Below the pieces are notes generated by a model. It ran no database searches. It was not told the DNA's origin and saw only the letters and a program-made list of their open reading frames with translations. Shown one piece after another: positions 751 to 3,700 of a stretch of DNA of 64,000 bases. Both the position numbers and the translations under genes were made by a program. Source of the stretch: Minisyncoccota bacterium (GTDB lineage: Bacteria; Patescibacteriota; Minisyncoccia; Phycocordibacterales; DSPV01); NCBI GenBank assembly GCA_041662545.1, contig JBAZSH010000002.1, positions 2,239 through 66,238 of the forward strand, given 5' to 3'. The stretch's first letter is position 1, and each line of letters starts with the position of its first letter.

Positions 751-3700
751 ATGATTTCCAAGTTTCCTAATGGGAAACAAGGGCGTATGGTGGATGCCTT
801 GGCTTCAAAAGGCGATGAAGGACGCAGCTTGGCGGCGAAACGCTTCGGGGAGGTGCCTAGCAACCTTTGATCCGGAGATGTCCGAATGGGGAAACCCATC
901 CCGTTTTTACGGGATACCCTGCTTATGGTAGGGAGTAGACCCAGGGAAGTAAAACATTTCAGTACCTGGAGGAAAAAATAAAAATTTTTATTCCGTCAGT
1001 AGCGGCGAGCGAAAGCGGAAATAGCCCAGATCGATTTGTTCGCAAGAACGAGTTGAAGTTGTAAGACGAAGACGTTTTTTCGCAAGAAAAAAGAAAAGTT
1101 ACAAAATATTTGATTAGCCGAAGCTGTTGGAAAACAGCTCCCAAGTGGGTGATAGGCCCGTAGGCGAAAATCGAATGTCTTTTTTGTTTTCGTTCTTGAG
1201 TAACTCAGGACACGAATAGCTTGAGTGAATCTGCCGGTACTAACCGGCAAGGCTAAATACTTTTGAAGACCGATAGTGAACTAGTACCGTGAGGGAAAGG
1301 TGAAAAGCAGCCCGGTAAGGGCGATGAAATAGACCTGAAACCATATGCTTACAAAGAGTTGCGGTCCCGCTTCGGCGGGATTGCAGCGTGCCTATTGAAG
1401 AATGAGCCAACGAGTTGATGTATGCCGCGTTAGGCTAAGCCCGCGAGGGTGAAGCCATAGGGAAACCGAGTGTTAATAGCGCGTCAGTGGTATATATCAG
1501 ACCCGAAACCGAAGCGAGCTTGCCATGAGCAGGATGAACCCCCGCGAAAGCGGGGAGAAGGTCCGAACGCTAGAGCTGTGCAATACTCTGCGATGACTTG
1601 TGGTAAGAAGTGAAAAGCTAATCGAGCTCGGTAATAGCTGGTTCTCTCCGAAATAACTTTTGGGTTAGCGTCGTGTGTTCCTTCCGGGGGTAGAGCACTG
1701 GATGGTCTAGACAGGGCGAAAGCTCGCTAGACCAATCAAACTCCGAATACCGGAAGTTAAAGCGCGGCAGTTAGAGCGTGGGGGCTAAGCTTCACTGCTC
1801 AAAAGGGAAACAGCCCTGACCTCAATTTAAGGTCCCTAAATCTATGCTAAGTGCATCACAAGGTGGTGGAATTTCTTTAACAATGAGGAGGTAGGCTTAG
1901 AAGCAGCCATCCTTGAAAGATAGCGTAACAGCTCACTCATCGAGAGATTCTGCGCCGAAGATAATCGGGGCTAAGCATAGTACCGAAACTGAGGGCTCTG
2001 AACCCGTTCGCGGGTGAAGAGCGGTAGGAGAGTATTCGCATCTGCATTGAAGCTCTAGCCGTGAGGCGGAGTGGAGCGTTGCGAAGTAAGAATGTTGGCA
2101 CAAGTAACCACAAATCCGGATGAGAACTCCGGACGCCGAAAGACCAAGGTTTCCTTGGCGATGATTGTCAGCCAAGGGTTAGTCGGGCCTAAGCCAATGG
2201 CGAAAGCCGCAGGCGATGGACACATGGTTAATATTCCATGACTTTTATAAAAATTTACGGGAGGACGGAGCTTAGTATGCCGAGCGCCTTATTGGATTGG
2301 CGTTCAGGCCGCGAGGAAGATGCCTAGGAAAATCCGGGCACGCCCTTTAGTGGGACTTCCCAGCGGATCGAAAATTCTGCGGGTAACCAAAGAAAATTTG
2401 GCAAAGCGGGCTTCCAAGAAAATTCCCTAAAATTATTTTTATGAAAACCGTACCGCAAACCGACACAGGTGGTCTGCTCGAGAAGAGTAAGGCGAACGAG
2501 TGAAAGTTCTCCAAGGAACTCGGCAAAAGATCGGCCGTAAGTTAGCGATAAGGCCTGCCTCCGCCTCAGGCGGAGGCCGCAGCTAAAGAATGCCTGGCGA
2601 CTGTTTATCAAAAACACAGCTCCCTGCGAACTCGAGAAGAGGATGTATAGGGGGTGACACTTGACCAATGCCAGAAGGTCAAATAACGGCGTTGTGCGTT
2701 CGCAAGAATGTATGGTGACTGTTATAAGCCCTGGTGAATGTCGGCAATAACTATAATTGTCCTAAGGTAGCGCAATTCCTTGCGGGGTAAGTTCCCGCGC
2801 GTCGAATAGTGTAACGTCTGGGCAACTGTCTCGGAGAACAGCTCGGTGAAAATACAATACCGGTGAAGATGCCGGTTACCTGCAGCTAGACGAAAAGACC
2901 CTAGAAGCTTTACTGCAGCTTGATATTGCTTGTACGTTTATTATGCGTAGCGTAGACGGTAGGATTTGAAGTGCCACTTTCGGGTGGCATGGATCCGACG
3001 ATGAAACACCGTTCTTAATTGATGTACCGGCTAACCCCGGAGGCAAAAACTACGGGGAACAGTATCTGGTGGGCAGTTTTGGTGGGGCGCTATCCTCCTA
3101 AAAAGTAACGGAGGAGTCCATTAAGGTCAGCTAGGCGCGAATGGAAACCGTGCCGATAGTGTATGGGCACAAGCTGGCTTAACTGTAAGACGTGCATGTC
3201 AAGCAGACGCGAAAGCGGGGCCAAGTGAACCGATGGTCCGCGTTAGATGCGGCCAGAGATTAACGGATAAAAGCTACTCTAGGGATAACAGGCTAGTTCC
3301 GCCTAAGAGTTCATATCGACGGCGGAGTTCGGCACCTCAAATCGGGGCGCCATACCAGTAATGGTATTAGCTACTTTGACATAATATTGGAGTTGAACCC
3401 GTTATGTTATAAGAAAAATATTGGCTTATAACGGTGAAACCCTACAAAATATTTTTGCATAAAATATTTTAAGGGCAATGCCGTGGGAAGTTCTCCGCCT
3501 TAGGCGGAAGGACCCCGTAGAGACTTTCCCGATGCCCGTCGGGAAGAGCCCGGATTTTTATCCGGACTAACACGCCAACGCCTTTCACTTTGAAAAAAGT
3601 GTGAGGATGAAGATATAGTCCATACAATTAGTAATAGTTGTGAAAAGATACGATGTCGGCTCAACATATCCTGGGGCTGGAGAAGGTCCCAAGGGTTTGG

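Follow-up and report, generated by a model that had tools for sequence, protein, structure and literature searches.

A 64-kb window (the whole 64,000-nucleotide stretch analysed here, from contig JBAZSH010000002.1 of the Minisyncoccota bacterium assembly GCA_041662545.1) was found to carry a bacterial 23S rRNA gene whose domain V is interrupted by 313 nucleotides (nt) of additional sequence. This insert is very probably an IA-like group I intron that holds no open reading frame (ORF), sits directly after U2500 (Escherichia coli numbering; site L2500) in the 23S rRNA of a Parcubacteria-type bacterium of the Candidate Phyla Radiation (CPR), and belongs to a large family of L2500 introns that moves horizontally. 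CPR 23S rRNA is already known to harbor group I introns, which have been catalogued, so the present copy is one more member and is ordinary for CPR; the modestly surprising variation, shared with many relatives, is that it is missing the guanosine with which group I introns near-universally end (omega-G). Its final base is A3650. We put at about even the chances that the A-ended L2500 introns, the present one included, make up one large lineage of natural group I ribozymes, or several such lineages, that ligate their exons with a 3'-terminal adenosine and an unchanged G-C binding site.

The 23S rRNA gene lies at 765-4037 on the + strand, and the Rfam model LSU_rRNA_bacteria (2287 bits) spans the split gene, which is divided as follows.

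765-3337, + strand: 23S rRNA 5' exon, ending at U3337, the equivalent of E. coli U2500 (Rfam model, with E. coli numbering checked)
3338-3650, + strand: group I intron, 313 nt, ORF-less, IA-like, with an A at the omega end (RF00028 match, hand-placed helices agreeing with the minimum free energy (MFE) fold, and covariation)
3651-4037, + strand: 23S rRNA 3' exon, its first base equivalent to C2501

The insertion falls between U2500 and C2501 in the peptidyl-transferase loop of domain V, where it splits the conserved segment GGCACCU/CGAUGUCGGCUC (E. coli 2494-2512); in the annotated E. coli 23S gene, positions 2494-2512 read GGCACCTCGATGTCGGCTC. The letters at the junctions are ...GAGTTCGGCACCT(C)/AAATCGGGG...AAGATATAGTCCATAC...GAAAAGATA/(C)GATGTCGGCTC, and with longer flanks they read GAGTTCGGCACCTC AAATCGGGG ... 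GAAGATATAGTCCATAC ... GAAAAGATA CGATGTCGGCTC. When the exons were joined by hand and compared with E. coli 23S rRNA, they aligned over 185 nt without a break, at 88.6% identity and with spans of equal length in the query and the E. coli record, indicating that exactly 313 nt are extra. One C is shared by the two junctions, so that the letters by themselves fit 3338-3650 and 3339-3651 equally well, but the U.G wobble of helix P1 puts the 5' splice site after U2500, and most relatives begin with U after GGCACCU, where the boundary is unambiguous; together these set the intron at 3338-3650. A preliminary description of this DNA had reported a conserved segment at E. coli ~2494-2512 split by ~313 nt at an L2500-type site in domain V, and had proposed alignment to an intron-less 23S rRNA. 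The E. coli alignment agrees with it on the segment, the length and the site, and the structural boundaries move its coordinates of 3339-3651 by one base. Insertion at 2499 or 2501 was also considered and was rejected, as it would change conserved rRNA and is not conserved among relatives. Contigs encoding the neighboring protein all break at the rRNA, and neither an allele lacking the intron nor a second, independent junction was obtained from them.

The Rfam group I model (RF00028, Intron_gpI) matches positions 3358-3641 over its full extent (model positions 1-253) with 55.3 bits, above the gathering score of 50 (E = 2.5e-11 for the 64-kb window), and the folding z-score of the insert against shuffled sequence is -6.1. 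The MFE fold recovers P1, P2, P2.1, P3-P6, P7.1, P7.2, P8 and P9, and hand placement of P1-P10, including the P3/P7 pseudoknot, accounted for every core helix. Pairs were counted on this structure, drawn from the window, in an alignment of 49 ORF-less members of the family (alignment A1). The structural elements are these.

3331-3351, + strand: P1, 5' exon GGCACCU plus intron C3338 (3331-3338) paired with the internal guide GGGGCGCC (3344-3351) (sequence, fold)
3341-3344, + strand: P10 part of the guide, AUCG, pairing with CGAU of the 3' exon at 3651-3654 (sequence)
3352-3367, + strand: P2 hairpin, AUACCA/UGGUAU with a GUAA tetraloop (fold; 6 of 6 pairs change on both sides in relatives)
3374-3413, + strand: P2.1 hairpin, peripheral and missing from many relatives (MFE fold, alignment A1)
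3421-3425, + strand: P3 5' strand UUGGC, pairing with 3574-3578 and forming a pseudoknot with P7 (fold; 4 of 5 pairs covary)
3431-3484, + strand: P4 (3431-3435 with 3480-3484), J4/5, J5/4 and P5/P5a (3440-3475) (Rfam alignment, fold)
3485-3516, + strand: P6 (GGG/CCC) and the P6a hairpin (fold, covariation count)
3520-3525, + strand: P7 5' strand, G-(A bulge)-GACU (sequence)
3526-3568, + strand: P7.1 (3526-3545) and P7.2 (3547-3568) hairpins between P7 and the P3 3' strand, a subgroup IA hallmark (fold)
3574-3578, + strand: P3 3' strand GCCAA (covariation count)
3581-3606, + strand: P8 hairpin with a GAAA loop (fold; 3 of 4 basal pairs covary)
3607-3621, + strand: J8/7 and the P7 3' strand, AUGAAGAUAUAGUCC (invariant or nearly so in alignment A1)
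3622-3623, + strand: J7/9 dinucleotide AU, forming P9.0 with A3648-U3649 (P9.0 pairing count)
3624-3641, + strand: P9 hairpin, ACAAUUA/UAGUUGU with a GUAA tetraloop (fold; 5 of 7 pairs covary)
3650, + strand: last nucleotide of the intron, the omega position, an A (sequence and relatives)

In these 49 relatives pairing is present in 92.5% of pair cells and falls to 36-41% when the partners are slid; both sides change in 24 of the 46 pairs, and none of 500 shuffles reached the observed values; taking the structure from one aligned sequence somewhat favors it, and the margin is still large. P4 is 96.7% paired, and three of the four P5 pairs covary. In P7, G3520 pairs with C3621 and 3522-3525 with 3617-3620, leaving A3521 bulged; the closing pair covaries (A-U in 28 relatives, G-C in 21), and the guanosine-binding pair beside the bulge, the canonical G3522-C3620, is G-C in 49/49. 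Equally constant is U3337.G3345, the 5' splice-site wobble, which is U.G in 49/49. A mismatch within P1 (A3334/C3348, that is A2497/C) is common to the closest relatives of the window intron (L139, L143, L131, L144, L126, L147; L022 is also listed in this subclade), in which the guide GGGGCGCC replaces GGGGUGC, placing the A2497/C mismatch inside P1 and lengthening the helix by an extra G2494-C pair. The placement of P7.1 and P7.2, together with short P5 and P2, makes the intron IA-like; in alignment A1 these two hairpins are missing from relatives L096, L004, L100 and L064. The core does not differ in the four metagenome relatives closest to the window intron (87-88% identity), and in them P6a, P7.1, P7.2 and distal P8 are swapped for different self-complementary hairpins. 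A functional RNA is expected to show such a combination of constant core and replaced yet paired periphery.

The covariance-model match, from the RF00028 search that the preliminary description had suggested, and the covarying core both bear out its identification of a group I intron. The Tetrahymena-like segment it had pointed to, AAGAUAUAGUCC, is J8/7 and the P7 3' strand (motif AAGATATAGTCC at 3610-3621) followed by P9.0, as it had claimed. It was likewise right that the insert carries neither an ORF nor a homing endonuclease: ORFs internal to the intron reach at most 52 amino acids (aa), none inside the insert encodes a homing endonuclease, and a 134-aa ORF on the minus strand (3500-3904) runs past the insert into the 3' exon. 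What had escaped it was that the canonical 3'-terminal G is missing.

Relatives were collected by scanning one genome per species for AGATATAGTC followed by 15-45 bases and then CGATGTCGGCTC, a search that matched at least 120 loci. Two loci with T before the exon (L006 and L099) turned out to match by chance, within protein-coding DNA, and were excluded, giving 118 loci among the matches listed, all of which have an insert at the same 23S site. Most of these are labelled as CPR lineages, and the other labels are Omnitrophota, Actinomycetes or Thermoleophilia, Planctomycetes, Acidobacteriota, Chloroflexi and a Coxiella endosymbiont. A neighbor-joining tree built on core columns divides the family into two subfamilies, characterized by the P7 strands GAGACU/AGUCC and ACGACU/AGUCU. 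Some labels are doubtful: three A-ended loci assigned to Gammaproteobacteria or Polynucleobacter (L089, L012 and L014) have 23S rRNA ~70% identical to that of E. coli over most of the aligned length, and a locus labelled as a Nitrososphaerota archaeon (L074) matches the bacterial large-subunit (LSU) rRNA model with 1593 bits. All four have CPR-type L2500 introns and are probably mis-binned CPR contigs. At the gathering score RF00028 does not report the L2500 homologues in L082, L090, L020, L141, L074 and L055, and surveys that use this threshold undercount the family because clear homologues fall below it.

Counting the window with the 118 listed loci, C2501 is preceded by G 75 times and by A 44 times. 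A metagenome scan keyed on the P9 type of the window intron, with the terminal base left free, gave 26 relatives, and 26/26 end in A. A U is the first base in most of the A-ended introns, which leaves no ambiguity about where they begin and end. The tails of A-ended introns are homologous to those of G-ended ones, as in ...GGAAUUACGUG versus ...GGAAUUAUGUA, ...AUAAAUG versus ...AAUAUA, ...GUG versus ...GUA, and ...AUG versus ...AUA. P9.0, in which two or three bases before the A pair with bases after P7, has at least 2 base pairs (bp) in 57 of 60 A-ended introns and covaries among them (AU/AU, GU/AC, AC/GU, GC/GU), and P10 has at least 4 bp, also in 57 of the 60. Because P9.0 and P10 register on it, the terminal A sits exactly at the omega position. 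It is found in both P7 subfamilies, on at least two separate branches of the neighbor-joining tree, it persists through roughly 25-40% sequence divergence, and mobile copies that encode endonucleases have it too. No core position tracks the terminal base in both subfamilies; the differences are confined to the periphery (P2, P9) and reflect relatedness, not compensation.

By an approximate automated method, boundaries of the U...G type could be placed for 16/17 listed loci near 2590, 8/8 near 2600 and 6/6 near 2260, versus 54/109 at 2500. Inserts of 338-798 nt at site L1931 in L082, L090, L020, L062 and L141, which Rfam does not detect as group I at the gathering score, have an apparent U or A end before the exon AGCGAAAU and give no U...G solution; non-G ends may reach beyond L2500, or the L1931-site inserts may be another kind of element. 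No description of the L2500 site, or of a terminal A or G at it, was found in open-access full text, where the omega symbol is unsearchable and which does not extend to subscription journals. The sole published natural precedent for a missing omega-G found in open-access text is Cbu.L1917 of Coxiella burnetii, a bacterial 23S group I intron without the canonical omega-G (title of Raghavan et al., 2007, as cited in PMC11270868).

Many members of the family are longer than the window intron and encode a protein. Listed members of ~700-900 nt mostly have ORFs of 188-241 aa, the exceptions being L017 (687 nt, 152 aa) and L024 (49 aa only), and all of the long A-ended members (22/22) have ORFs of 188-241 aa. 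Two of the ORFs, one for each type of intron end (A and G), were scanned against Pfam, and both matched LAGLIDADG_2 (E = 1e-40 and 3e-34); the nearest solved structures are I-SceI-type enzymes. These long uninterrupted ORFs and the LAGLIDADG_2 match argue that the A-ended introns are not decaying elements. The ORF is placed between P4/P5 and J6/7 (the P5/P6 region), and in many members it ends at, or a few bases from, the conserved GUAG or GUAA of J6/7, so that the ribozyme core seems to include the stop codon. Examples of LAGLIDADG_2 ORFs ending at J6/7 (CCCCGUAG or CCCCGUAA) are seen in L109, L125 and L042. The window copy is the ORF-less form of a mobile L2500 family whose longer members encode an I-SceI-like LAGLIDADG_2 endonuclease.

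The host itself, judged by similarity to labelled metagenome-assembled genomes (MAGs), is a CPR (Patescibacteria) bacterium of the Parcubacteria type, in keeping with the CPR context supposed earlier. Among the listed loci, the 3' part of the window 23S is most similar to that of a Candidatus Parcubacteria MAG (L011; 88% identity), and the next-closest, at 83-85%, are L100 and L020 (Paceibacterota), L062 (Parcubacteria), L023 (Yonathbacteria), L113 (Nomurabacteria) and L091 (labelled Saccharibacteria). The L2500 intron of L011 is a different one, 817 nt long and G-ended. That the nearest 23S relative carries a different intron at the same site indicates that intron and host histories are uncoupled.

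Given the structure, the following course of splicing can be proposed. The precursor would fold into the P1-P9 core, with the U3337.G3345 wobble in P1 marking the 5' splice site, and an exogenous guanosine would dock on the P7 pair G3522-C3620 and attack the bond after U3337. P9.0 (AU/AU) and P10 (CGAU/AUCG) would then bring in the 3' splice site, with A3650 occupying the place of omega-G in the guanosine site, and the 3'-OH of U2500 would attack the A3650-C3651 bond, restoring the canonical GGCACCU-CGAUGUCGG. The predicted ligated junction is GAGTTCGGCACCT/CGATGTCGGCTCAACATATCC, or in longer form GAGTTCGGCACCTCGATGTCGGCTCAACATATCC. What was established directly is the sequence, the covariation-supported fold, the covariance-model match, the precise point of insertion, and the presence of a terminal A that is conserved in relatives. 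From these we infer that the intron splices, with the terminal A as the leaving nucleotide; precise removal is argued from the position in the peptidyl-transferase loop, the intact covarying core, and the uninterrupted endonuclease ORFs of A-ended relatives. Splicing would probably be slower than in an omega-G intron, and the second step may be slow or dependent on a protein.

Several observations weigh against this interpretation. In the Tetrahymena mutagenesis literature, exon ligation is reported to be strongly impaired when the omega position holds an A, and the guanosine-binding pair is unchanged, with no compensating change found in the core. P10 of the window intron has just 4 bp and its P1 holds an A.C mismatch. 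Many clear L2500 homologues score below the Rfam gathering score, making the covariance-model score by itself a weak guide within the family. The case for splicing draws on conservation and on the location of the insert in the peptidyl-transferase center.

The same facts leave room for splicing that uses this chemistry and is not truly self-splicing, in which a protein (a host factor or a LAGLIDADG maturase acting in trans) would be needed to position the 3' splice site in the absence of omega-G. We regard such dependence as unlikely. The combination of a terminal A with an uncompensated core would fit it, as would the LAGLIDADG_2 proteins of the ORF-bearing relatives, some proteins of this kind being maturases; against it, the window intron has no ORF, a second group I intron was not detected by Rfam anywhere in the 64 kb, P9.0 and P10 are nearly always present in A-ended introns, and the Coxiella intron Cbu.L1917, which ends in A, reportedly self-splices in vitro. 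Still less probable, and in our judgment very unlikely, is a dead relic that stays in the mature 23S rRNA or is excised without ligation to leave a fragmented rRNA. The missing omega-G would be understandable in a relic, but the whole catalytic core is intact and covarying, divergence is concentrated in the periphery and not in the core, A-ended relatives retain their long endonuclease ORFs, and the universally conserved loop of the peptidyl transferase would hardly accommodate 313 additional bases or a break in the strand. An unspliced group I intron has been reported at L1931 in Simkania (Everett et al., 1999, as cited in PMC11270868), a precedent for retention. Fragmentation has its own model in the intervening sequences processed by RNase III, which are also extra 23S sequence removed after transcription; those known are located in helices 25 and 45, not at U2500 (PMC11270868). 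They are simple extended stem-loops whose flanks are not ligated, in contrast to the complete ribozyme core found here.

Two further readings concern the terminal base itself. A nearby guanosine, G3647 or G3652, lies 3 nt upstream or 2 nt downstream of the inferred junction and might serve as a normal omega-G, in which case the mature rRNA would gain 3 nt (AUA) or lose C2501-G2502. This is highly improbable and both candidates were rejected: no G stands at a constant distance in the relatives, whose tails include UAUAUA, AUGUA, AAGAUA and AUACA, P9.0 and P10 register on the terminal A, and the universally conserved CUCGAUG of the peptidyl-transferase loop would be altered, whereas a junction at A3650 would give GGCACCUCGAUG. 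An error of sequencing or assembly is effectively refuted by the occurrence of the same terminal A in 43 independent genome assemblies among the loci listed and in 26 metagenome contigs.

Cbu.L1917 belongs to a different subgroup than the L2500 introns and represents a single lineage, at site L1917, in one genus, whereas the L2500 terminal A occurs in dozens of divergent introns of both subfamilies. By sequence inspection, the LSU intron of Tetrahymena thermophila (L1925, IC1) has a nearly identical J8/7 and P7 3' strand (AAGAUAUAGUC), the same bulged P7 geometry and a G-C guanosine-binding pair; it differs in having a P5abc extension and an omega-G, in having no P7.1/P7.2, and in being nuclear, not bacterial. 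An omega-G is also present in the L2593 introns of cyanobacteria and chloroplasts. Those introns share the short P5, short P2 and P7.1/P7.2 extension of the L2500 introns, but they occupy a different site and encode single-motif LAGLIDADG endonucleases, unlike the LAGLIDADG_2 proteins nearest to I-SceI encoded at L2500 (Haugen et al., 2007; PMC1995217).

The closest parallel in host, gene, clustering in domain V and ORF-less short forms is with the CPR 23S introns already surveyed (PMC11270868; also PMC13011429). In the survey of Tsurumaki et al. (2024; PMC11270868), 45% of 968 CPR 23S inserts were group I introns around the peptidyl-transferase center, detected by RF00028 and present with and without LAGLIDADG genes at the same site; their distribution departed from host phylogeny, and insert positions were stated as approximate. 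That survey contains no splice-site nucleotide analysis, and a missing omega-G is not mentioned in its searched text. L2500 could not be matched to its numbered sites in the searched text and supplement.

The remainder of the window provided some additional observations. A 5S rRNA gene (4078-4191, Rfam) follows the 23S gene on its 3' side, and no 16S rRNA or tRNA gene was found upstream of the 23S gene in positions 1-764; no 16S gene having been found, the 23S-5S pair is unlinked to 16S within the window. The first ~420 nt appear by eye to encode, on the minus strand, the N-terminal end of what is probably a GTPase. In the Rfam alignment, 23S domain I has ~23 nt more than the bacterial consensus at 1075-1100, a small expansion segment. 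The only tRNA gene found in the 64 kb is a tRNA-Leu (CAG) at 17433-18, on which ARAGORN and Rfam agree. Also found was a bacterial type A RNase P RNA at 46310-46620 on the minus strand (128.7 bits). This is a reduced form, 311 nt against a 367-position model, in which model segments of 43 and 20 positions have shrunk to 4 and 1 nt and a P12-like hairpin is truncated.

An rRNA intron in a CPR bacterium is expected biology, and its chief value is for annotation, as several clearly homologous L2500 introns in related loci would escape annotation at the Rfam gathering score. The terminal base bears on a wider question. Descriptions of group I catalysis usually treat omega-G as an invariant; it is better regarded as near-universal than as strictly defining. 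Widespread, mobile and evidently maintained A-ended introns in an essential, usually single-copy rRNA gene would supply natural test ribozymes for asking how a 3' splice site is chosen without omega-G, whether the second step is rate-limiting, and what the effect on ribosome production is. If these introns do ligate their exons with a terminal adenosine, omega-G would be dispensable in nature much more frequently than the lone Coxiella case implies, and the choice of the 3' splice site would rest mainly on P9.0 and P10. A slower second step could then limit ribosome maturation in slow-growing CPR cells.

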